Shown piece by piece: positions 1-20,000 of a DNA stretch of 20,000 bases. The stretch's first letter is position 1; every line of letters begins with the position of its first letter. The translations under genes were made by a program, and so were the position numbers. Source of the DNA: Psammoneis japonica (Eukaryota); NCBI GenBank assembly GCA_008632985.1, contig QPGO01000021.1:740980-760979 (forward strand), in the 5' to 3' direction. A model generated the notes under the pieces. That model was not told the origin of the DNA, ran no database searches, and was given only the letters and a program-made list of their open reading frames with translations.

Positions 1-520
1 CGGTCATTTTCCCACTTGAAGGAGGCGAGGGACCAGCAACTTTTTTCTGGCACCAGCGCGCCTCCTGTTGCTCTAACCCCTCCTTCCCAACAATTGGACA
101 TTTCTTGAATCTCCGTTAGAACATCCTCGTGCGTTGAGTCACAGGTGCCTGGAAAGCATGGGAGATCTGCATCATCGACGAAAGTGCAACACACATGGTG
201 GTGCACGTTCTTGGAGATCGGTGTTGTCACCCGAATGCCGCAACCCTCGGCTTTGAGCACGTTAATTGTTGGTGTGCTTGCAACGAGCCAAATGGCAGGT
301 GCAGCTCCATGGCCTTGAAAGATTCCTTGCAATGGGATCTCCATGGCACCGCATGGTTCTGCTGAGTCTCCGCATGCTGTTCTCACGCAATGCTTCATCT
401 GTGTGAGTGTTCCGATCATCATGAAGACCTCATCTTCTCCAGCTCCAAACCTTCTCATGCAAAGGGCAGCTGCCGCATGTGGGATTCGATCACAGCACGA
501 TTTGGCATCCGCACTGCATG
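1..520 (-). pseudogene. Reverse transcriptase domain of ORF2 (fragment)
   Basis: Manual minus-strand translation gives CSADAKSCCDRIPH (~518-477; family form SxDAKSCYDRI), PLQGIFQGHGAAPAIW (~336-290), the catalytic FVDDADL (~183-163) and WEGGVRATGGALVPEKSCW (~89-33). This frame is missing from the ORF track because it runs off the window. Confidence 0.93.
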
Positions 521-660
521 TTCATCCACTCCCAGGGGAATGACGCATGTTCCCTCCAGCACTCTTTTCGCGGCCGGGGAGTCCGAGTTGCAGCCAAAAT
601 CTTGAAGGAGAGGCGTCTTCATGAATGGGACAGTGCACTGACTTGTCTGAGTTTGTCCAT

Positions 661-770
661 TGCAGTGTGCATGCAGACAAAAGGTCATTTTTGTCACGCC
701 CTTTGTGACATTTAAAGGCTGTGACACGTCGCCGTGATGCATTGACTCTTGTCAGCAGCTGTGTGTTGCA
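661..770 (-). repeat. 3' LTR of the miniature element (110 bp)
   Basis: Ungapped alignment to 1004-1113 shows 11 mismatches, all transitions. It is preceded on the minus strand by the polypurine tract. Confidence 0.9.
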
Positions 771-924
771 CTCCTCCCCATGTGTCACGCGTCCATGCGG
801 CTCTTCACCAACGTGCACTGACACTGCACGGTTTTGGCGGAACAGTGTGGGTACGTGCGAAGGAACACACAGAACTGCACAGAGTTTTACGCGTTCGACA
901 GTGATCAACGTTGCTGCAGACAAC

Positions 925-999
925 TCCCACTCAGGGTTTCGAACCCCTGGCCTCCTGCCTGATGGTTGCCGGTGCGATGAACCACTCCGCTGTGAATTC
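925..999 (-). promoter_or_regulatory. tRNA-like segment with RNA polymerase III A-box and B-box inside the miniature element
   Basis: The minus strand has CAGCGGAGTGG (992-982; A-box TRGCNNAGYGG with the first T as C) and GGTTCGAAACC (945-935; B-box) within a CAGGG...CCCTG stem, 36 nt apart. The acceptor and anticodon stems do not form well, so this is not an intact tRNA. Confidence 0.6.
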
Positions 1000-1003
1000 A
1001 CAA

Positions 1004-1113
1004 TGCAGCATGCATGCAGACAAAAGGTTGTTTTTGTCACACCCTTTGTGACATTTAAAGGCTGCAACACGTCACCGTGATGCATTGGCTCTCATCAGCA
1101 GCTGTGTGTTGCA
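1004..1113 (-). repeat. 5' LTR of the miniature element (110 bp)
   Basis: Direct repeat of 661-770, with TGCA...TGCA termini. Confidence 0.9.
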
Positions 1114-2691
1114 CCATGTCTCGAACGTCCTTTGCCTTTGCGTGCTTCTTCCATTCCCTCTTTCGTTGAGAACACCTTGTCCACCCCGTTGGGTCCTGGT
1201 GCTGTGACCGTTTGGAGTGCCCGTCAGGGTTTGCCCGTCACTCTTTTGATGCGTCGGAACATTCTCTTTTGTCGGCAGCTGTGCCGAACAATTCGTTCCT
1301 CTTTTTCCTGGGTCGTGCCGTTCTCTTCTGCTCGTTTTGCGCACCGGATCTTAAACTCCTCTTGCCAAAGCTTTGCAGCTTGCTTCTTGAGTTTGCAGTG
1401 TCTTTTCATTGCCAGCTTGTGTTCTTCTGACACTTGGTGTGGTCAGAGCAGCAGGGCGTCCATTCTTCCAGTGCACTGCATTCGCCTGTTGATGATCTTC
1501 ATGCTTGCTCTCCGAAAATGGTGCAGCTCATGCACTGGTCTCCATGAGTGAATCTCTTTCCTCGCTTTGTTGATGACGTTGCTAGATTCCACCTCGTTCA
1601 TGTGCAGTTTCCGGCATTTTGCTTTTGCTTCTAGCCTGATCTGATGATTTGTTTGGAAGAGCCGCTCGCATTCTTGTTGTTCTGCAAGGCCAAAGTCGTC
1701 TGAGTTTTCCAGTCGAACAGCTCTTCGTGACAAATCATGCTTCAGAATTTGCGTTGCCACGAGCTGAACGTGCTTCTTCACCACCTTTGGATCGTTCAAT
1801 TTTCCTGCCAGTTGGTCTGAGATGGTCTCAGAAAGTTTTGGTGGGTTGAAACCCAGAGCGCTTGGTTTCGAAACATCAGTCCATGAGAGGCGATGATCGG
1901 AAGTACACAGTCGAAGTCACCAAAGCCAGTCATTCCTGCCTTGGTCACTTCCAAGGCGGGCGACACAAGAATTGCATCAACCGGAATGTCAGACCGGTTC
2001 TTGTTGCATGTTGCCACTGCTGGAAGATCCGGATGCGCAGATTTCAATGCGTTGATGAGGTGAAGCGACCCATGCCACGCAACAAAGGTTGACCCTCGGA
2101 CTTTTTCATTGAAGTCACCTCCAACTGCTGTGAGGTCTCCCTCTGCCTGCCATTCCTCAATGTGGTTTGCCAAGTCTTCTGGCACCGCTCGTCGTGGACA
2201 GTGCAGATCATTCTTTGAAAGAAGACATGTTTCTTGTTGGGAGTGTGCTCTGCCTGGATTGGCGTGGTTGTCCCCAACCGGTCGGCAAATTGTGACGATT
2301 CTTGTGTGCATTCCTGATTTGCCTCGAAGTCTTGCCCATGTCCATCTGCCTGGTCCCGTCGGGTCGTTGCCACTGGAGGTCAGGTGGTGGTTGACATGCC
2401 TTGTTGGCAGATGTCCTGCACCCCGTGCTGCCTCTTGTTTTCTGTTGAGCAGTGTTCGTTGGTTGTGACAAGAGAGCCATGTTTTGACAGACTTCTCCAC
2501 CGGTCTCTCCATTGCTCATGTTTCGGAATTCGCTTGAAGTTCAAGTTGATCTCTGTCAAGCCCATGATGTCAGAATGATGTTCTGTGATCCAATTCATCA
2601 TTCCTTTGTGTTTGTCCTCAGAAGAAAGTGATGCTGGTGGCCCACCAACATTGTGAAAAGCCACTCTGATGGCGTTGTGTCGTTTCATCAA
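1114..2691 (-). pseudogene. N-terminal part of ORF2: apurinic-like (EEP/APE) endonuclease plus linker, frameshifted
   Basis: Motifs spread over several frames: IRVAFHNVGG, DIMGLTEINLN, DPTGPGRWTW, RIVTICRP, GGDFNE, VDAILVS, SDHR (~1900-1889), followed by NDPKVVKK and KCRKLHM. Confidence 0.88.
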
Positions 2692-2899
2692 AGTGTTGTC
2701 ACCCCAAGCCTCATCCAGTTGACGACTGGTAGATTCTCGATTGACGTCCTCCTTTTGCGGTTGTCGTCGTGACTGCTGAGGATGGCAGGGATTGGGGATC
2801 CTGGCCCGCTCCCTTGGCCTGAGAGCTGGGATGGTGGTCTTCCAGGTCTCCTGGTTTGGAGTCCTTCTGGGCCGGACCAGTGTCTGGATCGTTCGCCGC

Positions 2900-5070
2900 T
2901 CATGGCTTTTCTAATTCTTGAATTGGCGCTTCACTCATTTCCTGCACCTCCTTTAGTTTTGCTTGGGTTGAAGGCGTTGTTTTGATGGATGCATCTTCCT
3001 CTTGTTCACATTCGTGGTGGTTCTCCAGATTTGCGAAGTCAAAGTTTGCCAAACGTTTCGTGACAGATGTGTGCTGTGTGTCGTCATCCTCATTCCTGAG
3101 ATGACCCACAGATTCCACATCAGCTGCTTGAGCCAGTTTTGCAGCAACTTCCTGTGCTGCTGCAGGTGGACCTTGTGCTCCATTCTGTCCGCTTGCATCT
3201 TTCTGAGCGTTGGCATCAGAGGACTTCCATCTGTCTGTTCCTTCCGTTTGTGCTTGCTCATCAGTCCACTGCTCCTCCATGCCCCGTGGGTCTTCCTCGA
3301 TCACATCTGACAACAATTCACCATCTTTAGATGTTGTGAGTCCAGTTTCTGGATCACACTCCGCATTCTCGTACATGGCAATCCCTGCAGCTGTGAACCA
3401 TGGTTCTGCGGATGCGCCGCAGACATGCAAACATTCCGGAACAATGTTGTTTGTCATTTGTGAGACTTGATCCACAGATTTTCTTGGGAATGTGATGACA
3501 TGATCGTTCGGCCTGTTCCACTTGACATCCAAGTGATGGATCAATGGAATGCACTTGTCCGGTTTGGCAGGGTCCGGCATTCGTTTCTGCATCAGATGGT
3601 GTCGCAGAGCTGTCTCTCCACCAGCGACTCTTGTCTTTTGGTCCGGGTTGTCAAGAAAGCCGAAATCAAGTTGTCCAATGACTTTCTGACAAAAGAAGTG
3701 TTGTCGTTTTTGAAGCTTGTCGATGTTCTCCTTGGTTTTGTCTGAGGCATGTTGCATGGTGGAGTTCAAGCAGCATGGAACAAAGCGCAGTTCGAGTCCA
3801 AGAACTTTTTTCCAAGCTCCTGCCCTCCACAGTCGTTCCGCTGCAAGTTTGACTTTGTGCGCTTTGCTGGACTCAACAATGATGTGGAGAGCTTCCGGGT
3901 TCTTGTCCGGCGTGTTTCTGTTGAAGGTGGGTCGTTTTCCGTCCCTTCCTGCAATGGATCTCCATTGAATTCCAAGACTGTCGTAGTCTCTGCCCAAGCC
4001 AAGAGCTTTGCTGAATTGTTTGTGCAATGTCCGCTTGCTCATTGTTTTGGTGCTTTGATGTGACCATCCAACACATTCAAAGCGCGTCAATTGACACGGC
4101 ATGGGGTTGCGTCCAATGGAGAATTTACCCATTTCCATGTCTGCAACCATCCCTGAGAGTTGCGAGCCGCAGTCTGCCACAGTTCTAAGATTGCAGTCTT
4201 CTGACACCTGGACGAGTCAAAGTTGGCAGCACATCGTGTGTTCGGCGTTGACTCTTGGGTTCAGGCAGTCTGCCCCCAGGAAGGCACTTGGAATTTCTCT
4301 TTCTTTTGCCAAACCTTCCGGAATGTCTTCTGGAGAAGTGACATCACCAAAGGCATCTTCTGGGTCAGGATCCCATGTGCCGATTCTAACATCTTGTCCA
4401 AGTGTCTCCTGCACTGTCGTGAAGGATTCTCGCAGGATGGAGGACACTGCTTTCAGAGGTTTTTTGGATGGTGGAATGGTCAGAAAGGCGTTGTGGCGTA
4501 ACTGACACCAAGGAATTCCTTCAGTTTGATTGGTGGCTTCTGTTTCTTGTGGTGTGTCAGTCTGCTGTGACTCCCCAACATTGGCTTCTTCCCCGATTTC
4601 TTCATCTTGCAGTGTGTCGGTTTGCTGCGAAGCCTGTTCATTCATCTCTCCTTCATTTTCTTTGTCTGATTCTGCAGAGTGATTCTTGCTTGTGAGTTGT
4701 TGAAGGGCATCTTCATTGGAGGATTCTTCACACATGTGGTCTTCTTCCGTGATTGCAATTTCTGCCGGAGTGATTGTTTTTGATTTTTCCTCCTTTTTGT
4801 TTTTCCTGCTTCGCGCAAAGGGTTTTTCATCGTCAGGTGTGAGTTCCCCCTCCTTGTTGTTGTCTTCCTTGGTGCATGAATTTTGCGCAGAGTTTGTGCG
4901 AGAGTTTTTTTTTTTACGGTCATCTGTTCATTGTTCTCGTTGTTTGTTTCCTCGTTGTGAGATCTTTCGATCATTTCATTCATTTGTCCTTTGCCCTTTT
5001 TCTTTTTGTCTCCTTTGCGTGGAGAGGTGTTTTTCTTTCCGCCGGTGCTTCTGCGTTTTGTGCCTGCCAT
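2900..5070 (-). pseudogene. ORF1 of the retrotransposon (basic N-terminus, acidic low-complexity tract, ~435-aa core), frameshifted
   Basis: Three consecutive minus-strand ORF pieces (5070-4642, 4735-4217, 4207-2900) lie directly upstream of ORF2 on the same strand. No catalytic motif was recognised, so the call is positional. Confidence 0.65.
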
Positions 5071-7930
5071 TGTGCCATTTTTTTAGCTTGTTGTTTGCAC
5101 GCACGTGCGAGTTGTGAGGCATGCAAATTTCATTCTCATGCAGATGTCAAAGCATGCCTCAAGAAGAAGGACAACAACAAGCCACATCGGGGCCAACTGA
5201 GCAGAGGAAGAGCACACTTCGCTGCCCAATGACTCGGTGACAAAAACTCTGCAAAGAACAATCCTTTGCAACAAGATGATGGGCAGAGTTGCGTCAAACA
5301 CAAAAGGCAGAACGCAAATGCAGCGAGTCAACGCTGCCATTGCCGTGCTGCCACGACCTGAACAAGTGAGACCTTCGGTCGGCAACTGACACGATTGTCA
5401 GATTGAACATTCACAACACTTCGTTGCACTGCTGTCGAGGGAACACATGCGTGTCTGCTGCTGATCCCATCCAGCTCTCTGGAGCGTCTGCTTGAAAATC
5501 GAAGGCTCATTTTAAATGGGAGACTGCCGCACCCACACAACTGGCGATGCTAAAGACTTCAGCCTGCCATCACCGTGCTTCGGACATTTTCGATCGGCTT
5601 CAGGCCATGTCTTCAGGCACTGCGTGCCTTCAGACATGTCCTTCTGTCCTCGGCCGGTGACGGTCGGCTTCAGTCGTCACTCTCGCCAGTCATTTGCAGG
5701 AATGACTTGTGTTGGTTCATCGTTTTTGCATCATGTGATGTTTGCAATGTGTGAGATTGGTTGTCTTCTCGGGGCGGTCGTCTTCGTCGCCTTTCGCGTC
5801 ACTGACCACACCATCATTTTGTGTCGTTTGCTCGGACTGCAAATCCGATTGGGTCTGTGCCTCTTGCAGCTCATGGCACATTTCCTGCGGAACCCATCAG
5901 TTGTTGGACTGACATTGTTGTTCGCAGCGCTGTGCATTTACAACACAGATGAAAAAGCAAACCCACGAAACGACACCGCGATCGAAGAGGCCGTCACCAT
6001 TGACAATGGCGTCTTCCAGCGGTCCCACAACAAGAATGCATCACCACCCATGCGACCAGCCAGCACGACGACTGCTCTGGCGGCATGCAGACAGTGGTCT
6101 GTTGCTCAGTCAGTGCGAGAGCCATTGAGTGTGCTGTGCATTCACAGATGTGTTCAGGTCTTTCATCTGTGATGTGGGTTCAGGTGCTGTGTGAACAAGT
6201 CCATGCTGATGGCAAGGGGCGGGGTGCAAGGGTGCCGTGCTCAGGGCCCGGCACAAAGCCGCTCCTCTGGGTGCCTCCTTTCCATGCTGGAAACAAGTGT
6301 GCCACTCATGAGGACTCATTTCTTCAAGCTTCAGAGTCAACCACAGCAGATGTGTCCCCCATCTTCATGTTCTTGTGGAGAACCTCGTCTTGGCTGTGGG
6401 TCGATGCGAGGCACATTTCTGCACACCCACGAAAGAAGTTACGATCTTCCAACACAATTTCTCTCCCAACAGAGCCAGCAACAAATGGCACCTGATTGGA
6501 ACAACAACAGGGTCCTTTGGTGCTCACACTCATCTTGCTGCACAGCAACTCTCTGCTGGCTCGAAGCTTCAGAGCGGCGCCCTTGACTGCTGCAGCAATG
6601 TGGGTCCAAGACTCTGCAGAAATTGCTTGGGTGCACCTGACTGCTGCCTTGTTTTGGTGAGTGCAGCTGCCAAAAAAGCCACCAAAAGCCCAGCAGCACA
6701 GGGTTCCTTGTTGGTGGAGAGCCGCGGGTGGAGATTTGCTCGCTTGCGTCACAAATGTGGCAAATGAAGTAATTTCAGATGCACACAACATTTCATTCAA
6801 GGGATTTTGTTCTGGAACGTGCATTCGCCGAAAATCTTGAGGCACCCTTTTTGCAATTTAGAAAGTTCAATGTCGACTTTTAACACCGGGTTTTTTGAAA
6901 GCTTCATCTGTGAACAGAGAGGAACTGAATCTCAACCTCTGACAATGAAGTTTGTTTTGAATCACCATCACAAACAGAGAAACAATGCCACACATTGGGG
7001 GCAAATCTCCACCGGTGGAGATTTGCTCCCAATGAGTAAATGCACGTGGCACACTTTGCGCAGATTGCACACTGTGTGACATTTTTTTGCTGTGTTCATT
7101 GTGTTGTTGCAAAAGTGCATGACACGTCACACATCCTCAAGTGGAGCAAATGAGATTTGCTCCCCTGGTGGTTGAAAGGTCAAGAGCCAGGCTGGCAGAC
7201 TTGGCAAGAAGCTTTGCACAATTCTTGCCAACACAAAGAGGAAAATCTTCTGGTGCTTTGATGGCCAAACATCCTCTCCCACTGCCTTTGACAATGTGCT
7301 TGAAGCCGCCTGTCTTTTTTCTGGAACATTGGTCGCAAAGCGGCCCTTGCTCAGCTCGGCACACAGCGCGCCTCTTTTTGTTGATCACAGTGTGTGTTGG
7401 TGGGTGCATCTGCAGCCAGTGTGCCATTAACTTCAACAGGCAGTTCGACACTTAGAGAAGAAAGCATGTTTGCCAGAGGAAAGGGCTCCTCTGTCTTTTT
7501 GTTTGTTCTTGTGTGGAGGTTTGCCACACGCTGGCTCTGCTCATTTGCAAAACAACGCTGTGAGCTCTGATCAGTCAAGAGCAAAGCAGGTGAGATTTCA
7601 AAGCCACTGCAAACTGTCTTTGTCTTGTTTCACACTTTGAATTTTCATGGTGTGTTGGGGTGCAGGGAAAGCGGGGAAGTCATGCTTGCTTGGCTGAGAA
7701 GGTTGTCCAAGCAGCAGGATGGCTTGCAAGCATTGGGGCCCCAGGGAGCTGCGTGGTGTGATGTTCTTTTTCGTTTTTTGTGCAGTGCCTGGAAACACAT
7801 TGCAGAGCTTTTGATCAATCATTCAGCGCAGTTCGCGGTTCGTGTTCGCGGATCGTCGCGTCGCATGCTTTTTCTTTTGAGCACCAATGACTCTGTGCGG
7901 TCAGTTTGTCTGTCATTTGGCACCCGCGGG
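5071..7930. mobile_element. Unclassified, TpA-depleted probable repeat/transposon-derived DNA (may include the LINE 5' UTR)
   Basis: Same compositional signature as the LINE, no recognisable protein, and contains short repeated motifs and palindromes. Confidence 0.45.
6993..7034. repeat. 42-bp palindrome (21-bp arms, one mismatch, no spacer)
   Basis: CATTGGGGGCAAATCTCCACC|GGTGGAGATTTGCTCCCAATG read directly from the sequence. Confidence 0.9.
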
Positions 7931-8003
7931 CATACTGTAGTGTTGTTTCGAATGTGGAATGAATTCCCGATCTCTACTCTCTAGTAGCTCTGCTACCGTA
8001 GAT

Positions 8004-8027
8004 AGAGAGAGAGAGAGAGAGAGAGAG
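8004..8027. repeat. (AG)12 microsatellite
   Basis: Perfect dinucleotide run. Confidence 0.95.
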
Positions 8028-8434
8028 CTGTTAGGCAACAGCAACGAATTTGGTCCCGAGTCTTTTCAGAGTTGTTTTCTCATCACAATGTGTTGGGAGC
8101 TGTAACGTCGTGGATGACTTTTTGCACTCGGGTGAGGAGTCACACCCTTTGCTCTGCAAACAACTTGCTAGAGGTCGAGAAGCATCAATGAGAGCTAGAG
8201 AGGGTACATTCATGCATTTGTTTAGGTCTTTCATGTAAGATATGCGTTCAGGTGTAAATAACTCCGTGACATCGACTACAGATAAGGAATGGAGGGCACA
8301 TACCTGGATCCATAAACCATTTCTATACTGTTTTCTCTCCGCGGTGAACCGGTGCCTTTGGCTCATCCAAGAGGGTAAAGCTTATAATCTGAGTTTCTGG
8401 GATACGTGATGGCCCCAAAGCCAAGAACTCTTTT

Positions 8435-9310
8435 TTAGCAATATAGATCTTCAGCCCACGCCTGCTTGACTCGTGGGTCGAGGTTCGACAATTGGTTCAG
8501 TCTCTTTTCTATAAAGTCGACATTCCCCTCCTCTTCCGATTTCATTTCAAGTGGCGCTTCGAAACGAACATGCATTGAAGCCACGCTCAATTTCTTACGC
8601 ATGGCATGTACAATAGGGACCAACTGAGCATCGTATGAATCACCTCCTTTATAAGAGGTCCACAGGTTGGCATGTTTGGCCTTGAACGAAAGCGGGCCAA
8701 AATGCCAGTCAATGCGTGGAAGAATGTGCTTGGCATTGTCCATTTCCTCTTGGATACCCGCGTCAAACACAGGCAAGCTGAAATTCAGTTTTGTAAGTTC
8801 CTTCTTTGTGACAGCATCTAAAAACAGATTGCCATACATTTCCGAGTGAAATTGTTCACACGGATAAGTCTCCTGAAACAGAGACAAAGACCGATACGGA
8901 ATAATCACATCTTCGCTTCGTTCTTGAACGCCACGCCAATGATGCACCATGTTTACTTTCTCGGGTTCTTGCCAGCACAAAATCGTATCTTCTCTGACTC
9001 CAAGTAGACCGCTCGCGATCTCTGCGGCCTCTCGCAGAGCCGCGCCCTTTTTCCCCTTTGCCGTCTGGCGTTGAACTAATGCCCCAGAAGACAAGAGCTG
9101 ATTGTGCACCTCGTCACTGGGAGAGCCGTCCACCACCACAACTGCAGTCCCATTAGTTCGGCACTCTGCCAGCATGTTCATACACATCTGGAATCGAATG
9201 TCGGCGGTAGACTCATAACGTGTGACGGTGAAAATCAAGTAGCCACGAGACTTAATAAGCTGCTCCAAAGATTCCGGGGTAGTGCTCATGACGATGCAAG
9301 TCCGTTGCAA
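8435..9310 (-). CDS. Uncharacterised GT-A-fold (nucleotide-diphospho-sugar transferase-like) protein, 291 aa; start could be Met at 9289
   Basis: Intact single-exon ORF with normal amino-acid composition. It has VVVVDGSPS (GT2-like VVDDGS), GKKGAALREAA (GKGxA-like) and LCWQEPEK at the position of the DxD motif. Confidence 0.7.
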   Translation of the reverse strand: MQRTCIVMSTTPESLEQLIKSRGYLIFTVTRYESTADIRFQMCMNMLAECRTNGTAVVVVDGSPSDEVHNQLLSSGALVQRQTAKGKKGAALREAAEIASGLLGVREDTILCWQEPEKVNMVHHWRGVQERSEDVIIPYRSLSLFQETYPCEQFHSEMYGNLFLDAVTKKELTKLNFSLPVFDAGIQEEMDNAKHILPRIDWHFGPLSFKAKHANLWTSYKGGDSYDAQLVPIVHAMRKKLSVASMHVRFEAPLEMKSEEEGNVDFIEKRLNQLSNLDPRVKQAWAEDLYC

Positions 9311-9702
9311 TGCTGTAAGGTAGCTTCAAGACGTCCGAAACGAATGTTTCTCGGGTTGCTGTCATCGCCTCGCTCTCGCTCGCTCCTCTTGGAAATCTTC
9401 GATCGGATATCTGGAGGATCTGGAGGACTTCCTTTTCCTAGTGTTCTCTCTCTTTCACTATACGTTTGTATTAACATCTTATAGGAAGACCTCGTTTCTG
9501 GAGCTATCACAGAACGCAAAACGACGATAGAAAAAGCAACATCAATCCTGATGACAGAACCAGCCTGAAACTCCTATTTGCTTCTGTGTTTCTTTTAGGG
9601 GATGTGTCAACGGAAGGAAACAGCGTGCACTGTGGCTTATTGCAGCTATAGTCATCGATTTTGTTCGCCGTTTTTAAAAAAGAAAACGTTGCACCGTAGG
9701 AC

Positions 9703-12700
9703 ATGAGGATGACACCCACTGGTCACAGTCAAAGGCGATTGCCTTTGGAAGGACGATTCTTTGCTCGGTCTCATGAGCTCAGCCGAATACGTTCGTGTCT
9801 CGATTCCGAGCCTTCAGGGGTAAAAGTTGTGCTTGTTTCAGGCTGTAGCGGTGTCGGAAAATCTAGATTGCTTCGTGCCGCTCTAACTTCGAGTACCCCT
9901 CGATTGATTGGATGCGCAAAGTTTGACTCGCGGTTTGCTCCGTTGGAAGCCATTCAAGACTGTGTTGTCGACATTGTTCGAAAGATCCAAGCGAATGAGG
10001 CCCTTTTGCATTTGATTCGTCAGCGACTTGGAGATAGCATGGAAGATGAGCACAAAGACATGTTGATGTCTGTGATTCCAGAAACGAGGGCTGTGCTTCA
10101 GTTCGAAACAGATGAAGAGGAAAAGACGAATGAGGAGAGGTCGGTAGCCCATACCGGTACAATGAGCAATAGTAAAGAAAACATGCTGCAGCTTCAAATG
10201 GCCCTGAAGGCCTTCTTGTTTGCAGTGGCTGGATTTGAGAAGGTTGTCCTTTTACTTGACGATCTTCAGTGGTGTGGTCAAGATTCCTTTGATGTTATCT
10301 TGTCTGTGTTTACAGAGCCAAATGCCTCCAATATGGTGCTTTGTGCGTCGTATCGGGATAACGAAATCAGGAGTGAGCTAATAATGTTTATGAACAAGCT
10401 AACAAACTCTCTACCATCACCGGCGATTTGCTCTGTGAGTCTGAAAGCCTTCGATGCAGCGTCCATCAATGACATGATGGCTTCCCTTCTAAATGCTGAC
10501 TCTAACGAAGAAACGTCCAACCTTGCCGGGATCATTCATCAACGCACCGACGGGAATATTTTTTTTGTAAGGCAGTTTCTTGAAGAGTTACAAAGAGAAG
10601 GGCTTCTCCGGTACAACTTCATTGCTTCTAAATGGGAATATGACGTACAACAGATCCAAGACAAAACAGCTCTCTGCGAGAACATTGTTCAGATCGTCAC
10701 TAAAAGAATCCATCGATTAGACCCGCCCATCCGGGATATCTTAAAGCTACTTGCCTGCTTTGGATGTCGGAGTAATGCTTCGACCTTGGAAATGTGTCAA
10801 TCGGTCTTTTCTGAAATCTCGAATACGGGTGAGCTACTTCAAGTGGCATGTACCCAAGAGCGTCTACTGGACGATCTTGGAAATGGATGGTATAAGTTCA
10901 GTCACGACAAAATTCTCGAATCTGTCAAGTCCATGCTACCTACTGGAGAGGAGCTCAATAAGCTACACTGGGATATCGGGATGTTCCTATTTGACGCTCT
11001 TGATGGTGCAACCACAGATCGCGACCGCCTTCGTTTCATGTGCGCGGACCAGATCAACTTGGGCGGAGCTCGTTTCGTCGAGGGAGAAAAGCATCGTGTT
11101 CAGCTTGCCAAGCTCAACTTGGACGCTGCCAAGTCGGCGTCGAGGCTATCGGCGTTCCATCCAGCTTGCAGATACTGCCAAGCTGGAATTGACATTCTTG
11201 GAGAGAACATGGCCGGTTCTTTGAACGTCGCGCTCGACTTGTATGTTCACTTTGCCGAAATGCTGTTTTGTTGTGGTGATATGACCCGAGCGAGAGAATA
11301 TTGTGACAAGATCTTTGCATCTGGGACACTGGAGCACAAAGTCCGATGCTACGTGACCATGTTGCAAATTCTCTTGTCAGAGGCAAAGAATCATGATGTT
11401 GTCGACTTTGGGTTACGGGCTTTGAAAGCACTTGGCGAAACCGTACCCCCAAAGCCCAACAAACTTCAAGCCCTCTATAGCTACAAGATAATGGCAAAAA
11501 TGCTGAACGATTCCACTCCTGAAGATATCCTCAGCTTGCCGATCATGAAAGACCCTGGAAAGGCCGCGCGTACTGAAATTTTGTTGGCTATGGTGATGCC
11601 TATCGTTCATCTCGCAATGACCAATTTGTATACGGTAGTGGTTGAGCGGATGCTAAGTCTAACCTTTCAGTACGGGTTGACAACCGCAGCCCCTGAGGCC
11701 TTCGCCATAGCAGGAGCAGAAGTCATTGCACACCGAAATGATCTTAAGCATGCATATCAGCTTGGGAAGCTGGCCGTTTCCTTGGCGGATCGACTGAAAG
11801 CAACGAGTGTCAAAGCAAAGGTATATATGTGGACTAGCGCCTTCACGCAATGGTGGATGGAGCCGCTTGCTCACTGCCTTGAATCAGCACTGAAAGGCTA
11901 TCATGCTGGACTTGCTGTTGGCGATCAGCATTACGGCTTTCATTGTATTTCAGCGTATGCTCTAACGTACGGATACTCGGGAATTCCGTTGTTACCTCTT
12001 CTTGATGATCTTGATAAATATGGTCAGCAGATGATTGATTATGGACAGTTCATGGTCTTGTTTTGCATCATTCCCATGTGGCAGTTTGTCTTGAATCTTT
12101 GTGGGAAATCTGACTCGCCGCTTGATATGTCTCGAGGCTACGCTCTCGACAAGCAGAAGCTGGCGGGGAACGAAGAGAGGATTGGAGAACAAGCTTGTTG
12201 GTCATTTCTGATGCAGTTGTGCTTTTACTTTGATGACATCGAGAAGGCTAGTGATCTCTCCCACCGGCTCAACGTCTAGACATCGGATTTGCGAGAGCCG
12301 AAGTGTTTTTCCCTGCCAGAGTATTCTTTTTCTCCCTAATCGCGATTGAGCAGTTCCGTCGCACAGGAAAGCGAAAGTTCAAGTTGGAAGCGAAGATGCA
12401 TGTGGAGCTGATAATGAAATGGATAAAGCTCGGTGCGAAAAATTTGGTGCACAAAGGTATGATCCTTCAGGCTGAGATGGACTCGCTTACTTCAAAAGAC
12501 CCTCATGTCGTTCGATCAAAGTACGATAAGGCATTTTCATGCGCCACGAGGAGTGGCTTTTTGCAAGATGGAGCTCTCGCGTGTCAACTTGCGGCTTCTT
12601 TTTGCAAGAAGGTGTTACCAGACTGCATGAACCAGTATGTTGTAAAAGCGTGGGAGCAGTGGATGGAGTGGGATGCGATTGCAGTGGCAAAGCACCTAGA

Positions 12701-12848
12701 AAAAAAGTATGCTGGCATTCTTGGTAGCACCAAATTGATCCGGTTGGGTGATCAAGGCTCGCTTCTTGGGAGAAATGGATTTCGGAGTCGTTCCCGTTTT
12801 TCTGAATCTGCTGCTAAGAAGCATGAGAAGTTGAACTATGGACCTTAA
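9703..12848 (+). CDS. STAND-class P-loop ATPase (AAA_16 / COG3899-like) with helical TPR-like C-terminus, copy 1; one frameshift at ~12269
   Basis: Motifs are FFARSHE, Walker A GCSGVGKS, Walker B VVLLLDDLQW, SYRDNE, TDGNIFF, YKFSHDKI and LAKLNLDAA. ORFs 9703-12279 and 12303-12848 are joined by restoring one base (CGGCTCAACG versus CGGCTTCAACG in copy 2). Confidence 0.88.
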
Positions 12849-13376
12849 GGCTGCTCCTTTTTGGTCGATGTTCCCGAGAGAGACAAACATCCAGTCATAA
12901 GGATCTTCTAGTGGTGGATGGCCGCCATCGAGACCAAATGTCCAAAACCGCAAAAGAGACAGTCAGCATTTCTTGGTAACGTTGAACCTTTCAGCTTTCA
13001 CGAGTAGGGAGTGAAGAGCTCTAACTCGGTCCTGTCCTTTTCCTAGAGTGTTCTCTCTCTTTCACTACTAGTTCTGTATTACCATCTCATAGGAAGACCT
13101 CCTTTCTGGAGCTACCTATTACAGCCAGAACAACGCGCAACTATCTCGCACGCAACTCGCAACAATCCGCAGAGGTCTCGCAGAAGATCAGATCACCGCG
13201 ACGACGGTCCTTTGCACCCACATCCTCTAGCTAGCGGTATTTGCTTCTGTGTTTACTTTTAGGGGATGAGTGAACAGAAGGCAACAGTGTGCACTGTGGC
13301 TTATTGCAGCTATGATCATCGATTTCGTTCGCCGTTTTTAAAAAAGAAAACTTCGCACCGAAAGACCTAATAAAGA

Positions 13377-16300
13377 ATGACACCCGCTGGTCACAGTCAA
13401 AGGCGATTGCCTCTGGAAGGACGATTCTTTGCCCGGTCTCATGAGCTCAGCCGAATACGTTCATGTCTCGAGTCCGAACTTCAGGCGTAAAAATTGTGCT
13501 TGTTTCAGGCTGCAGTGGTGTCGGGAAGTCGAGATTGCTTCGTGCCGCTCTGACTTCGAGTACCCCTCGATTGATTGGATTCGCAAAATTTGACTCGCGG
13601 ATTGCTCCGTTGGAAGCCATTCAAGACTGTGTCGTTGATATTGTTGGAAAGATTCAAGCAAATGAGAATCTTTTGCATTTGGTTCGTCAGCGACTTGGCG
13701 ATAGCATGGAAGATGAGCAGAAAGACATGTTGATGTCTGTCATGCCAGAAACGAGGGCTGTACTTCAGTTCGAAACGGATGACGAAGAAAAGAAGCAAGA
13801 TGAGAGGTCAATGACGAAGACTATTAGCAGCAATAAGCAAAACATGCTACAGCTTCAAATGGCCCTGAAGGCCTTCTTTTCACGGTAGCTGAATTTGAGA
13901 AGTTGTCCTTTTACTCGACGATCTTCAGTGGTGTGGTCAAGATTCCTTGGATATTATCTTGTCTGTGTTTACAGAGCCAAAGGCCACCAACATGGTGCTT
14001 TGTGGGTCGTATCGGGACAACGAGATCACGACTGAACTAAAGACTTTTATGAACAGCATGTCTGACTCTCTAGCATCGCATGTGATATGCTCAGTGACGC
14101 TGAAGGCCTTCGATCCAGCAGCCGTCAATGACATGCTGGCTTCGCTTTTGAGTGTTGACTTGAAAGGAGAAACGTTCGAGCTAGCGAATGTCATTCATCA
14201 GCGCACCGATGGGAATATCTTTTTTGTGAGGCAGTTTCTTGAAGAGTTACAACGAGAAGGGTTTCTTCGATACAACTTCATGACCTCTCAATGGGAATAT
14301 GACGTGCAACAGATCCAAAACGAAACGGCACTCTGCGAGAACATTGTTCAGATCGTCGCTCAAAGAATCCATCGACTAGACCCGCCCGTCCGGGATATCT
14401 TAAAGCTACTTGCCTGCTTTGGATATCGGAGTAATGAATCGACCTTGGAAATGTGTCAATCGATCTTTCCTGAAATCTCGAATGTGGGCGAGTTACTTCA
14501 AGTGGCATGTACCCAAGAGCATCTACTGGACGATCTTGGAAATGGATGGTATAAGTTCAGTCACGACAAAATTCTCGAATCTGTCAAGTCCATGCTACCT
14601 ACTGGAGAGGAGCTTGATAAGCTACACTGGGATATCGGGATGCTTCTTTTTGGCGCTCTTGATGGTGCAACCATAGATGGTGACCGCCTTCGTTTCATGT
14701 GTGCAGACCAGATCAACTTGGGCGGAGCTCGATTCGTTAAGGGAGAAAAGCATCGTCTTCAGCTTGCCAAGCTCAACTTGGACGCTGCCAAGTCGGCGTC
14801 GAGGCTATCGGCGTTCCGTCCAGCTTGTCGATACTGCCGAGCTGGAATTGACATTCTTGGAGAGAATGTCGCCGGTTCTTTGCATGTTGCGCTGGACTTG
14901 TATGTTCACTTTGCTGAAATGCTGTTTTTGTTGTGGTGATATGACCCGAGCAAGAGAATACTGCGACAAGATCTTCGCGTTTGGAACACTGGAGCACAAA
15001 GTCCGATGCTACGTGACCATGTTGCAAATTCTCTTGTCAGAGGCAAAGAATCGTGATGTTGTCGATTTGGGGTTACGAGCTTTGAAAGCACTTGGCGAAA
15101 ATGTACCCAAAAAGCCCAACAAGCTTCAAGCTCTACATAGTTACAAGAGAACAACCAAAAGGCTGAACGATTCCACTATTCAAGATATTCTCCTCGTACC
15201 GGTTATGAAGGACTTCGTCAAAGCGGCTTGTATTGAAATCATGCTTGCAATGGAGTTACCTATAGTTCATCTCGCAATGATCAATTTGCACACAGTGATT
15301 GTTGATCGAATGCTAAGTCTCACTTTCCGTCATGGATTGACTACTGCAGCCCCTGAAGCCTTTGCAGTAGCAGGGGCGGACGTCATTGCACAGCGAGACG
15401 ATCTCAAGAACGGATACCAGCTTGGGAAACTAGCTGTCTCCTTAGCGGACCGACTAAAAGCGACAAGTGTGAAGGCAAAAGTTCACATGTGGTTCAGTGC
15501 TTTCACTCAGTGGTGGGTGGAGCCGCTTGCCCAGAGTCTCGATTCTGCTTTGAAAGGTTACAATGCCGGACTGGCGGTCGGCGATCAACACTACGCGTTT
15601 CACTGCATCACTGCCTACACCACTGCCTACGTCTATTCGGGCATTCCGCTGTTACCTCTTCTTGATGATCTTGATAAATATGGCCAGCAGATGATTGACT
15701 ACGGGCAATTTATGGTCTTGTTTTGCGTTATTCCAATGTGGCAGTTTGCCTTGAATCTTTGTGGGAAATCTGACGCGCCGCTTGACATGACTCGAGGCTA
15801 CGCCGTCGACAAACAGAAGCTGGCGGGAAATGACGAAAAGATTGGAGAACAAGCTTGTTGGTCATTTCTGATGCAATTGTGCTTTTACTTTGATGACATC
15901 AAGAAGGCCAGTGATCTGTCCCAACGGCTTCAACGCCTTCAAATAGGAATTACACGGGCCGAAGTGTTTTATCCGACAAGAGTGTTCTTTTTTTGCCTTA
16001 CTGCGATCGAGCAGTTTCGTCGTACAGGAAGGCGAAAGTTCAAGCTGGAAGCGAAGAAACATATGCGGCAGATTACGAAATGGATAAAGCTCGGTGCGAT
16101 CAATTTAGTACACAAAGGAATAATTCTTCAAGCCGAGATAGACTCGCTAACTTCAAAAGACCCTGTTGCCGTTCGATCGAAATACGACAAAGCGATTTCA
16201 TGTGCCACCCGGAGTGGCTTTTTGCAAGATGGAGCTCTCGCGTGTCAGCTCGCAGCATCGTTTTGCAGAAAGGTTCTGCCAGACTCTATGGAACAGTACG

Positions 16301-16521
16301 TATTCAATGCCCACGAAAACTGGATGGCCTGGGACGCAATTGCAGTAGCACATCACCTTGAAATGAAGTATTCTGACATCCTTGGCGACAAGGCGAGCTT
16401 ACGTTTGATGCGATCGGGCAATGAAGCTTCTCAGAAGCGTGGATGCAGCGGATTCCGAAGTCGCCCCCGCTTTTCCGAATCTGCCGCTAGGAAGCATGAC
16501 CACTTAGACTACGAGAAGTAG
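13377..16521 (+). CDS. STAND-class P-loop ATPase, tandem paralog (copy 2); four 1-bp indels
   Basis: ATG at 13377 gives MTPAGHSQRRLPLEGRFFARSHEL, collinear with copy 1 through to the stop at 16521. Indels relative to copy 1 are at ~13479 (-1), ~13880 (-1), ~13902 (-1) and ~14927 (+1). No in-frame nonsense codons were seen once these are corrected. Confidence 0.82.
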
Positions 16522-16799
16522 TGGTTGGCTCGTTGATCGGAAAAGGTGCCAGATCCTTGTAGTGCTTTAGGAATAGTGCGGGAGTCAGTGTTTTATCGTC
16601 GAGGCAACGATGAGGCGCTACAACGTTGCCACGTCGTCTCTTTTGCACATCGTCAAGGCACTATATAACTGGCCAGAATCCATCATGCCTGAAAAAGGTT
16701 CCTTGCGCCCACATTAATAGACATAATAAGTAATTGTTTGCTACAATAATGGAAACGATGGAGTGTACACACTCACACAAGACGCATTCTATAGAGCAC

Positions 16800-19105
16800 C
16801 TACAGTTGCCCTTTCTTGTATTGAATAAACCTTGACGCATTCAGCGCGGTCTCCTTCCACTGTTCCTTGTCCTGCGGAGTGCCACCGCCGCCACTGATTC
16901 CTTTTTTGAATGGAGGTAAAGTCCGCTGAAAGTTTCCCAGCACATCCAGCGAGACAAAGACGTCCGCATGAACGTCATCTTCACCATAAATGTCCATGAG
17001 AGCATTGAACGCTTCGCTCTGAACCATGGTGGACGAGGATGCCAAGGATGTCAAAAGAGCAGAACAAACCTTGGTGTTGACTTGTGTGGAATGCGTCTCG
17101 GAACCGCACAAGATTCCCAGCATACTCGCTGCGTCGCGTGTAGGAATGGATAATTTGCGTTTTGCAGCAAGGACACGAGGAAATCCAAATGGTCTTGTTC
17201 GATCTGGGAACGCAACACGGGCCGCGTCCTTTGTGCCACCACCATGGCGCTGCTGATACCCTCCAAAACTCCGTCAATCGATGCCACGGACGACACCGAC
17301 AAGAGCGCCTGTAGGCACTGCACAAGTTCGTTCCACACGGCAATCGGATCCGACGACCGCCACGAGGGCAAATTGGCAATGCAGTTTCCGATGCAACCAC
17401 CACACTTGGAAATCAAATCGGCGACCTCCTGCATCACATAAAGCGGGACGATATTATTCTCGTTTGGTTGATGAGGCGAACAGAGATTCTTCAACAAGAC
17501 GACAAGACCATCGGCGAGTCCCTCTTGTACAAGAATGTCCGCAACGGCTTGGTCCAAGGGATGCATCTCGAGTTGCTCTTGTTGTTGGTCCGCCGCGCCT
17601 TGTTGCGCCGCCAAGAGTTGCGCCTCTTGTGTCGGTCCCCAATCGTCTTCCTCCATGGCGTCTTCCATATCCACGGATGCATTGTCAATACTATCTTCTT
17701 GTACCAAGCTACCCGTCAAATTTGCCGATATCTCTAGTGACAAGTGCAAGGGTAGCAGAGCCGAATGCCACGCCTGTCGAGCCTTGTCCATGCTTTCTCG
17801 GCAATCCTTGTTGGATTTTGCTTCGTCTTGCTGCATGGGTTCGTCGTCCTTGTCAATCTTCATTTCACCACCATTGTCCATATTATTTGCGTCTTGCTGT
17901 TTCCCTTCACCTTCTCCAGCAATTGCCATTTTTTGACTAATTTCCTCCTTGGCTTGTTTTTGACGCCTTGCAATCAATCTCGCAGGTTCTTTGCGCCGAT
18001 TGACCGTTTCAATCACTTGCTGCTCCAAAGCGTCGTCGGCCTGTTCCTTTTTATAAGCCTCTCGTGTTTGCACAATATTGGCAATCAATCCTTGTGCCGT
18101 CTCCTTATCGTAGGTTAGGTGATTCTTTAAGAGTGGAACGACAGACGCTTGAATTTGGTTTTGAAGAATTGAAATCAACTCGGATCGAGCAGAGTCGTTT
18201 TCATGACTACACAATACCATTTGACGAATCGACACGAGACATCCCGCGGCATGAAGTTGTGCGGGTGGAGTCAGCTTGTTGTTGCTGCTGGAATGATGAC
18301 AAGATGACACCAAAATATCAATTCCATGTCGAAACGTCGAGCCGTCGTTGTGCATCATCCATGCCTCGAGCAGATCCATGTTATCGTCCAAGGCGGAATG
18401 CAAGGTTCGAACGGCATACACCGTCACGTCTTGGGTCCATTCCAACATCATCTCGTCGCTGTCATCATCTTCTTGTTGTTGCTGTACAGCCTTGCTTTGC
18501 CTTCCGCTCAATTCCTCTTGTCCCAATACTAAAAACTTGACAAGCATCGTGACAAATTCTGTAGGCTTGGCCATGATGCGCTCTAAAGCAAGAGGATTGA
18601 TTTCGACTAGAGCACAGAGTGCGTGTAGGCATTGAACCGTGACGGCCCACCAATGATGAAGCCGTTGTTTTGACCGTTTGTTGGATGCAGTATTATCTTT
18701 TGCAGACGTAGAAAGCGCCGCCAGACATTGTTCAAGTCGACTCATCAAGACCACCGTCCATCCGGCCGTCACGTCGTTGTTGCTACTGCTGCTATTGCCG
18801 TAGTACGACACATAATTGGCACAACACCCGGCAGCCGCTTGCGAGCATTCCAAATCGGAATCCATGACGCGTTCCAATACGACTTGAAGAACTTGACTGG
18901 ATATTTTGTAGTCCTTGGAATGCCCGAGTTGAATGGGATGAAACAGCGTCGTGGCGAGCGCCGACAGGGCACCGTGACGAACTTGTGCGTTGCCATGACG
19001 GAGTTTTTTAATCAAGGATGATGTCGTTGTTGCAGAATCATTATTGTTGTTTTGTTGTTGTTGTTTGTTATGACGGTTCCTACGACGACGGCCCTGTTTT
19101 CCCAT
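16800..19105 (-). CDS. HEATR3: HEAT/ARM-repeat protein, HEATR3/Syo1 (symportin-1)-like; one frameshift near 17155
   Basis: The N-terminus is basic (MGKQGRRRRNR, ATG at 19105) and is followed by VRHGALSALA and ERVMDSDLECSQAAAGCCANY, with acidic insertions. C-terminal SEAFNALMDIYGED and ETALNASRFIQYK resemble the HEATR3/Syo1 C-terminus as I recall it. One extra A in GCAAAT joins ORF 19180-17051 to the frame of 17123-16800. Confidence 0.72.
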
Positions 19106-19550
19106 GGTTGATTTTTTGTTCTCTGGAGTGAAAAGATCTGGGATAAAAAAAATGAGTGGCGCAAAAAAGTTGTGGCGCAAAGATCGGCAGTCTTTGCGTC
19201 GACCGTGTCGGAGGGAATTTTCCGCAATTCACTTGTATTCGGATCTATATAACATATTGAATTTTCAATTTTCTGTAGACTTGCAGTATCTTTCGGTTTC
19301 AGTACTGAAATCCTGTAGAATCTACGGCCGCGCATGTCACGGGATGAGAATGAAGAGTCGCGGCCACGAACGAACCTGGAACCTGGATGACCTTCCCGCT
19401 GTCATTGCTTGTTAGTGGAAAAGGTCACACTCCACGATACACAGGAGTCTCTATTAGGTCGCTCCACGATACATTGGAGTCTCTATTATTGCTTTGTCTC
19501 GCGCGCCGCAACAACACAACGCACCACAACAACACATGCAAGCTGCCACC

Positions 19551-20000
19551 ATGATGATGTCTGAAGAGCAAGCCGAAAAAGCCGAAGAGCTTCAGGCTTC
19601 TCGGTTCCCCGCATGGACCGCACTCATGATTTTCTCGTGTGTCGCCTTGATTGCACACACGACAACCGATTACGTCGATGACAGTTCGTCTGAAAAGTGG
19701 GTCACGTCGGTGTGTGCCATTTCACTGGGCATTTCCTTTTGTGCCATGGTGGCACACTTTGTACCCTCATCCAACTTTGTGGGAGAACCCGCTGAAGGTG
19801 GTGGTAAGGCAGCTTGCAGTCTGAATCGCATCATTCACATTCGTTTCTTTTTCATTAGAGTTCGCATCCGCAACACCGACAGCACCAACATTGCTCTCTC
19901 ACAATTTCACAACATGTCATCTTACCTTGCCGTTATTCTCTCTTTTGCCAGTCGCCTTCTTCATTATAATTTTCTGGGCAGCTGGTTTGCCGTCATTATG
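19551..20000 (+). CDS. Multi-pass membrane protein of unknown function, 5' part; exon 1 19551-19803, intron 19804-19951, exon 2 19952->20000
   Basis: Start context is GCCACC-ATG (in-frame upstream ATG at 19536). Exon 1 encodes MMMSEEQAEKAEELQASRFPAWTALMIFSCVALIA...KWVTSVCAISLGISFCAMVAHF...EGG. The donor is GTAAG and the acceptor is pyrimidine-rich ...TTTTGCCAG. The spliced frame continues as the hydrophobic VAFFIIIFWAAGLP. Confidence 0.72.
   Translation, partial: MMMSEEQAEKAEELQASRFPAWTALMIFSCVALIAHTTTDYVDDSSSEKWVTSVCAISLGISFCAMVAHFVPSSNFVGEPAEGGGKAACSLNRIIHIRFFFIRVRIRNTDSTNIALSQFHNMSSYLAVILSFASRLLHYNFLGSWFAVIM

Follow-up and report, generated by a model that had tools for sequence, protein, structure and literature searches.

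Near-complete loss of TpA from a chromosomal domain containing a non-LTR retrotransposon in Psammoneis japonica, and its probable origin in DNA-level hypermutation

We analysed a stretch of 20,000 nucleotides from Psammoneis japonica (assembly GCA_008632985.1, contig QPGO01000021.1, positions 740,980 to 760,979 of the forward strand), which is called the window below and supplies all coordinates. Its left part, positions 1-7932, forms a domain from which the dinucleotide 5'-TA-3' has been almost completely erased and whose left edge lies beyond the window. Within this domain, on the minus strand, lies a damaged retrotransposon of the type without long terminal repeats (non-LTR), a long interspersed nuclear element (LINE).

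The element was recognized by a broken second open reading frame (ORF2) at 6-2784 (minus strand), which encodes an endonuclease and a reverse transcriptase (RT). A phmmer search with 1796-2515 (minus strand) as the query returned 1102 proteins at E<=1e-3, and a profile was built from 18 intact homologues longer than 1500 aa (1555-2191 aa, with a tyrosine content of 2.2-3.5%). The N-terminal, apurinic-type endonuclease occupies 1910-2784 (minus strand) and is read in two frames, with an overlap at 2422-2485; profile positions 8-124 were matched at 2784-2422 (E 4.7e-24) and positions 106-295 at 2485-1910 (E 1.8e-58). The middle part of ORF2, which takes in the last part of the endonuclease (SDHRLSW) and a linker, is located at 1098-1904 (minus strand; profile 296-566, E 2.3e-49), and its translation contains in-frame stops. 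The RT core (DAKSCCDRI ... FVDDADL) is located at 6-545 (minus strand; profile 764-944, E 6.1e-72) and leaves the window at its left edge; the piece at 3-521 (minus strand) shares 37% identity (E 9.8e-30) with a protein of 1886 aa that carries PF00078 (P0001). Endonuclease and RT thus follow one another within one ORF2, in profile order from 2784 to 6 and with the FVDD motif in place, as in a LINE. The copy is damaged by frameshifts, by stops and by a rearranged block at 545-1118, in which profile positions 610-764 are missing (a gap of 155 residues), a fragment at 497-667 (minus strand) supplies, at 667-497, a second match to profile positions 556-610, and two direct repeats (658-771 and 1001-1114) are 89% identical. 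The sole Pfam match on ORF2 was a sub-threshold one, to Exo_endo_phos (E 0.0048). In the available part of a diatom genome paper, LINE/Ambal elements are among those annotated (PMC12803021).

Upstream of ORF2 lies an ORF1-like region (3265-4510, minus strand), delimited by tblastn to related loci. The ORFs at 2900-4216 and 4217-4927 (both minus strand) matched the DNA upstream of ORF2 in two such loci, L047 (E 5.6e-40 and 6.3e-12, respectively) and L046 (5.2e-38 and 1.6e-10), and the element therefore extends to about 4500-4900. No Pfam family matched the ORF1-like region, nor did its ORF yield a match when proteins were searched by words.

The window was compared with run X1, a set of Logan contigs of one sample that is possibly the source of the window's assembly; the depths given below are contig depths, and single-copy DNA has a depth of about 56. 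At 601-1200, across most of the rearranged block, the summed depth was 68,000-80,000, and a T-arm-like string occurs near 930-990; this stretch may belong to a short repeat of very high abundance, similar to a short interspersed nuclear element. ARAGORN reported nothing for the tRNA-like string in 771-1001, and Rfam nothing at E<=1 on 400-1300. In the ORF1-like part two tyrosine codons survive, at 3372 and 3984 (plus-strand contexts GTAC and GTAG). At 3984 other contigs of the run show CA where the window keeps TA, sister copies having been hit where the window's copy escaped.

The dinucleotide content of the domain is strongly skewed. In 1-7932, TA was observed 33 times, versus 472 expected from base composition (observed/expected 0.07), TG was observed 856 times (593 expected, an excess of 263) and CA 687 times (398 expected, an excess of 289, observed/expected 1.73). 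In the flank, 7933-20000, the ratio for TA was 0.51, and the G+C content was 0.475 compared with 0.502 in the domain. Every segment of the domain had a TA ratio of 0.05-0.08 (0.08 in 1-2800, 0.07 in 5001-7200 and 0.05 in 7201-7932), including the DNA beyond the ORF1-like part (5100-7932), for which neither coding content nor a mobile nature was identified; when 14 further ORFs of the window were compared with Pfam, none of the nine within the domain matched. Since the stops TAA and TAG have gone from TA-free DNA, long spurious ORFs occur in all six frames, and the window as a whole has 92 ORFs that are 80 aa or longer.

The right boundary of the domain (7933-8030, including the start of a (GA)n run) is abrupt: there is no TA in 7454-7932, and there are eight in 7933-8003. 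A single contig of 2812 nt (depth 55.9 in run X1) spans 7122-9000 and joins 7201-7932 to the normal flank. The (GA)n microsatellite itself lies at 7993-8034, about 70 bases outside the edge, and contigs seem to be cut there. A second repeated stretch, 6601-7200 (summed depth 3600-4270 in run X1), is as free of TA as the rest of the domain and had no protein-family match. The segments 6117-6205 and 8190-8268 (89 bases, 67% identity) were considered as a mutated and unmutated pair and set aside, their similarity being too weak.

The direction of the change was obtained from a codon-level test, which does not require sister copies. Conservation in 12 or more of the 18 homologues was found at 174 profile columns; the window has the consensus residue at 131 of them and differs at 43. 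The consensus is regained by one or two steps from TG or CA to TA in 14 of these mismatches, by a step to CG in two, by another transition in three and by a transversion in eight, while the remaining 16 need several steps; the TpA type makes up 14 of the 27 mismatches classed as single-step. When the consensus residues were permuted among the mismatch columns, a mean of 3.29 cases followed the TA rule and none of 2000 shuffles reached 14. With a looser threshold for conservation (9 of 18), the count was 30 of 108, against a shuffle mean of 7.42 and again with no shuffle as high among 2000. The corresponding rule for a CG ancestor performed at chance level (2 of 43 versus a mean of 1.33; at the loose threshold 5 of 108 versus 3.33, with 434 of 2000 shuffles as high). 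A control rule for an "AT ancestor" (12 of 108, shuffle mean 2.66) was discarded, since eight of its 12 cases were the same ATA codons already counted under the TA rule. Non-synonymous reversions to TA improved the profile score by over 1 bit in 52 of 289 cases, those to CG in 22 of 261 and other transitions in 43 of 955; such gains were counted because the mean change in score is dominated by reversions that create stops.

Tyrosine, whose codons contain TA, is absent from the 747 aligned positions of the window, compared with 2.6% in the homologues. At the 15 columns where it is the commonest residue, the window now has nine cysteines, four histidines, one methionine, one serine and no arginine, while other residues were mostly retained (Trp at 10 of 12 columns, Asp at 15 of 17, Pro at 19 of 21 and His at 6 of 6). 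The lack of arginine at all 15 disfavours a CG ancestor, and it also means that the two halves of one TA were not both hit, as is to be expected because a first hit would destroy the TpA context on the other strand.

These results bear on the initial annotation, which had been made from the sequence alone and held that TA was the ancestral dinucleotide, on the ground that TA reversions would repair conserved motifs. The motifs it quoted are all found, with their codons, in three frames of the minus-strand translation (SCCDRI, NVGGPP, DPTGPGRW, GDLTAVGGDFNE, SDHRLSW, AHSQQ, TICRP, FGC and GTC; codons TGT at 494, TGC at 592, 547 and 2287, CCA at 2353 and 2640, ACA GCA at 2131/2128, TCA at 1886 and CAC at 2245). 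In 151 homologues aligned to the 18-member profile, the residue restored by a TG/CA-to-TA reversion was the commonest at nine of ten sites. It was tyrosine at TI[C]RP (145 of 147, with the window's residue in one), SC[C]DRI (21 of 25, window's residue in none), [H]SQQ (87 of 148, with histidine in nine), GT[C] (14 of 29, with cysteine in one) and FG[C] (12 of 32, with cysteine in none). Leucine was expected, and the window's residue absent, at DPTG[P]GRW (127 of 146), NVGG[P]P (52 of 88) and SDHRL[S]W (80 of 124), and the same was true of isoleucine at GDL[T] (91 of 150). The claim that reversion gives the family-typical residue holds less well at the tenth site, GDLT[A], where valine (41 of 150) is second to isoleucine (92) and alanine does not occur. 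At each of the ten sites, the residue of the window (cysteine, histidine, proline, threonine, alanine or serine) is lacking from the homologues or uncommon in them, as the annotation had supposed. The count of TA steps against other changes at conserved columns, which had been set beforehand as the check, gave the TA excess described above (14 of 43, not reached in 2000 shuffles). The homologues carry tyrosine, leucine or isoleucine at the quoted columns rather than arginine and a CG ancestor explains only two of 43 mismatches, so the proposed TA ancestor was upheld.

We consider it very probable that the domain was subjected, after insertion of the LINE, to hypermutation of TpA to TpG or CpA at the level of DNA, over at least 7.9 kb of the chromosome. 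After the retrotransposon had inserted, a process acting on DNA would have converted nearly every 5'-TA-3' of the domain to TG or CA, through an attack on the A of TpA, in either strand, that turns A:T into G:C, with one hit removing the site for the other strand. Both strands would be hit equally because TA is its own complement; the replacement of tyrosine by cysteine or histidine but never arginine, the interleaving of the two kinds of change and the similar rise of TG and CA would all follow from one hit per self-complementary TA.

So far, a single preprint of 2026, on one chlorarachniophyte, Bigelowiella natans, has described targeted A:T>G:C hypermutation of DNA (Mettrop et al., bioRxiv 10.64898/2026.01.13.699255). 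According to the part of that preprint available, two integrated viral regions acquired 231 mutations in mutation-accumulation lines, of which 230 were A>G or T>C, all of these 230 at TpA, with rates about 1000-fold above background and mutations in only some of the lines; an ADAT2-like DNA adenine deaminase was proposed. While the direction, dinucleotide specificity, strand symmetry, extent and flank preference of the change in P. japonica can be read from the sequence, its chemistry may, by analogy with the proposal for B. natans, be that of an enzyme which deaminates adenine in DNA to hypoxanthine.

The process would also read the neighbours of TpA, since ATA and TAT were fully lost and TTAA was hardly depleted. 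None of the 33 surviving TA in the domain stands in an ATAN or NTAT context, whereas 210 of the flank's 424 do so (P = 1.6e-10), and TTAA accounts for seven of the 33, versus 12 of the 424. On the assumption that the domain once resembled its flank, the A of TpA is most vulnerable before T and least vulnerable before A, and any candidate enzyme must reproduce this preference.

As to the trigger, the process would track a domain, in which CpG is also lowered, and not sequence duplication as such. An internal control is provided by a tandem pair of STAND/AAA_16 NTPase genes in the flank (9430-12826 and 13035-16499, plus strand), which share 82.4% identity over 3483 columns and are not TA-erased (TA observed/expected 0.39-0.58 in the kilobases of the pair). 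Their 509 differences include 51 of TA versus TG/CA, 79 of CG versus TG/CA and 210 transversions. Duplication is therefore not the trigger, since an 82%-identical tandem pair is without the TpA signature, yet 7201-7932, covered by the single contig of depth 55.9, is TA-free. The first copy of the pair is one ORF of 859 aa, while the second is split (13445-13888, 13899-14939 and 14677-16521) and may be a pseudogene.

The depletion of CpG in the domain (315 observed versus 500 expected, ratio 0.63, compared with 0.97 in the flank) suggests methylated, silent chromatin, which may serve as the targeting cue. Methylated silent DNA of this kind would also suit a passive decay of TpA, in which a modified base at TpA in silent chromatin (an oxidized thymine such as 5-hydroxymethyluracil or 5-formyluracil, or a methylated adenine) is miscoding or misrepaired, so that TA is lost in the manner of methylated CpG. 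Such decay would accord with a signature that follows a sharp-edged domain rather than a repeat unit, and the flank preference fits a sequence-specific modifying enzyme as well as a deaminase. The extent of the loss argues against it, however: the shortfall in the domain is 439 for TA and 185 for CG, and the loss of TA (93%) is far above that of CpG (37%). In B. natans, moreover, the changes came in bursts in 11 of 15 lines, with a rate per site and generation of about 1e-7 to 2e-6 in the available part of the preprint (bioRxiv 10.64898/2026.01.13.699255), which looks more like regulation than like a constant chemical attrition. We therefore regard passive decay of a modified base as unlikely.

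The distribution of the changes over the two strands was analyzed further. At the strict threshold, seven A>G and seven T>C changes were counted on the coding strand, and at the loose threshold 16 and 15, respectively. These 31 events are interleaved (21 runs; P of 21 or fewer runs under shuffling = 0.97), and strand-coordinated clusters were not found among them; in the strict set, the grouping of 14 events into five runs was not significant (P = 0.077). Two further claims of the initial annotation are borne out here: that changes fall on both strands (16 A>G and 15 T>C, interleaved, with excesses of 263 TG and 289 CA in the domain), and that this balance speaks against ADAR-type editing of a single RNA template. 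The reach of the domain, about 2.8 kb beyond the ORF1-like part, speaks against such editing as well. If the element's RNA had been hyperedited from A to I prior to its reverse transcription, an already mutated copy would have been delivered at insertion; this would be in keeping with a retroelement as the affected sequence and with the preference for U before the edited A mentioned in the Discussion of the preprint (bioRxiv 10.64898/2026.01.13.699255; consulted in part). Editing of the sense RNA, however, yields only A>G on the coding strand, whereas 15 of the 31 changes are T>C and interleaved with the others, and the TA-free DNA past the ORF1-like part is without a match to the element.

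The copies also differ from one another in a way that speaks against RNA editing. The internal repeats at 658-771 and 1001-1114 show 12 differences, eight of which form four doublets of TG versus CA. Between the window and other contigs of run X1, the 40 of 1489 differences that were listed comprise 34 events, including six TG-versus-CA doublets, seven cases of TA in other contigs where the window has TG or CA, and one of CA where the window keeps TA. Since TG-versus-CA doublets occur both between the internal repeats and between contigs, the copies were hit independently, and on these several grounds an origin by RNA editing is very improbable.

Low TA is not a trait of the element's family, because 80 related loci from metagenome contigs have TA ratios of 0.48-0.89 (median 0.72), compared with 0.08 in 1-2800 of the window. 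In the 29 of these loci that have an ORF of 1700 aa or more, which were put through the conserved-column test, TA reversion accounts for 31 of 911 mismatches and for no more than 10% in any locus, versus 14 of 43 in the window (Fisher p = 9.7e-10). The same 29 relatives keep tyrosine in 133 of 174 tyrosine-column cells and have cysteine or histidine in three; the window keeps none of six. The relatives with the lowest TA are L049:359-1986 (TA 0.48, CG 0.59, TG 1.44, with an ORF of 205 aa) and L059:1540-4806 (TA 0.49, CG 0.64, TG 1.59, with an ORF of 490 aa), which may represent copies, in other organisms, that were affected to a mild degree.

Long-read basecalling can go wrong at modified bases, but an artefact of basecalling or assembly at modified TA sites, or else a compositional property of the family or CpG decay, is scarcely credible as the source of the pattern, given that contigs of run X1 reproduce 2008-2564 and 2538-3155 with no differences (in a run that is possibly the assembly's own source), that the element also has frameshifts, stops and the gap of 155 residues, that the relatives have TA ratios of 0.48-0.89 and that CG ancestors explain two of 43 mismatches.

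Several observations weigh against hypermutation as the whole account, or limit it. Ordinary decay has also contributed, with 16 multi-step mismatches and eight transversions among the 43, and part of the TG and CA excess in the domain comes from CpG decay. The ancestral residues rest on homologues of 25-45% identity rather than on a family consensus or sister copies. Tyrosine was replaced by cysteine and histidine in a ratio of 9:4 (binomial p = 0.27), and with so few cases a slight bias between the strands could go unnoticed. TG-versus-CA doublets alone cannot separate a TA from a CG ancestor, and among the 34 listed events between contigs there are eight with CG in other contigs where the window has TG or CA; all of these counts rest on 40 of 1489 differences. 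Finally, the single-copy status of 7201-7932 rests on the k-mer depth of one contig.

A further gene in the flank is of eukaryotic type: an SYO1/HEATR3-like gene at 16800-19228 (minus strand) consists of two overlapping ORFs (17051-19228 and 16800-17273), which are probably separated by an intron or a frameshift.

The pattern in P. japonica shares some features with other mutational processes that affect mobile DNA. Repeat-induced point mutation (RIP), known from Neurospora and other fungi, changes C to T, mostly at CpA, thereby creating TpA, and is triggered by duplication. The domain resembles the products of RIP in its dense, dinucleotide-specific transitions on both strands of transposon DNA, in the destruction of coding capacity and in the reach into neighbouring sequence. 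Unlike RIP, TpA was destroyed here (0.07), CA rose to 1.73 and G+C was raised, while the 82%-identical tandem pair lacks the signature. APOBEC3 acts on cDNA (G>A) and ADAR on RNA (A>G), so that a single-stranded intermediate is modified on one strand and within the element only. Clustered transitions, a preference for certain neighbouring bases and the inactivation of a retroelement are common to both enzymes and to the domain described here, in which, by contrast, the two strands are equally marked and adjoining DNA is marked as well. With the CpG decay of methylated transposons the domain shares the rise of TG and CA and the lowered CpG (0.63 versus 0.97 outside); such decay cannot remove TA, however, and predicts arginine ancestors where the homologues have tyrosine.

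The agreement with B. natans, as far as the available part of the preprint describes it, is more extensive. The integrated DNA of nucleocytoplasmic large DNA viruses (NCLDVs) and virophages in that alga likewise shows A:T>G:C changes at TpA, TpG and CpA on two strands, the changes are limited to foreign DNA amid normal surroundings, and copy number is irrelevant (the NCLDV region of B. natans is single-copy, and the tandem gene pair is untouched here). Among the coding sequences of B. natans with low TpA, reverse transcriptase and DDE domains are over-represented, and a LINE is affected in P. japonica. The two cases differ in the algal lineage and in the DNA affected, which here comprises a LINE and neighbouring DNA, and also in degree, the near-complete erasure described here (0.07) contrasting with a TA ratio of 0.45 in the NCLDV region. 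A flank preference was seen in the window, while the main text of the preprint contains the words "context", "flanking" and "trinucleotide" zero times and makes no mention of diatoms.

A literature search found no description of a TpA-erasing pattern in diatoms or other stramenopiles, and none is mentioned in the available parts of PMC2806351 or PMC9998398. The latter, in the part available, describes diatom DNMT4 enzymes as related to the fungal RID, with their function unknown (PMC9998398).

That a retrotransposon from another algal lineage carries this signature, and almost to saturation, suggests a widespread defence of eukaryotes, or a by-product of silencing, that rewrites mobile DNA; in P. 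japonica the process may serve the defence of the genome. One practical consequence is that TA-free regions lose tyrosine codons together with TAA and TAG stops and evade homology-based annotation of transposons, as is apparent from the one sub-threshold Pfam match on ORF2. More tentatively, and with somewhat less than even confidence, we propose that an ancient mutator dedicated to genome defence may be common to diatom-like algae and chlorarachniophytes. This would be a DNA adenine deaminase or an equivalent base-modifying activity, directed to domains of silent chromatin and not to repeats as such, preferring T over C or G and these over A as the 3' neighbour (so that TTAA is left nearly untouched), acting on both strands to near-exhaustion and stopping at a chromatin boundary, here at 7933. 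If true, such a shared mutator would be a counterpart of RIP working in the opposite direction, spread across the supergroup of stramenopiles, alveolates and Rhizaria (SAR).

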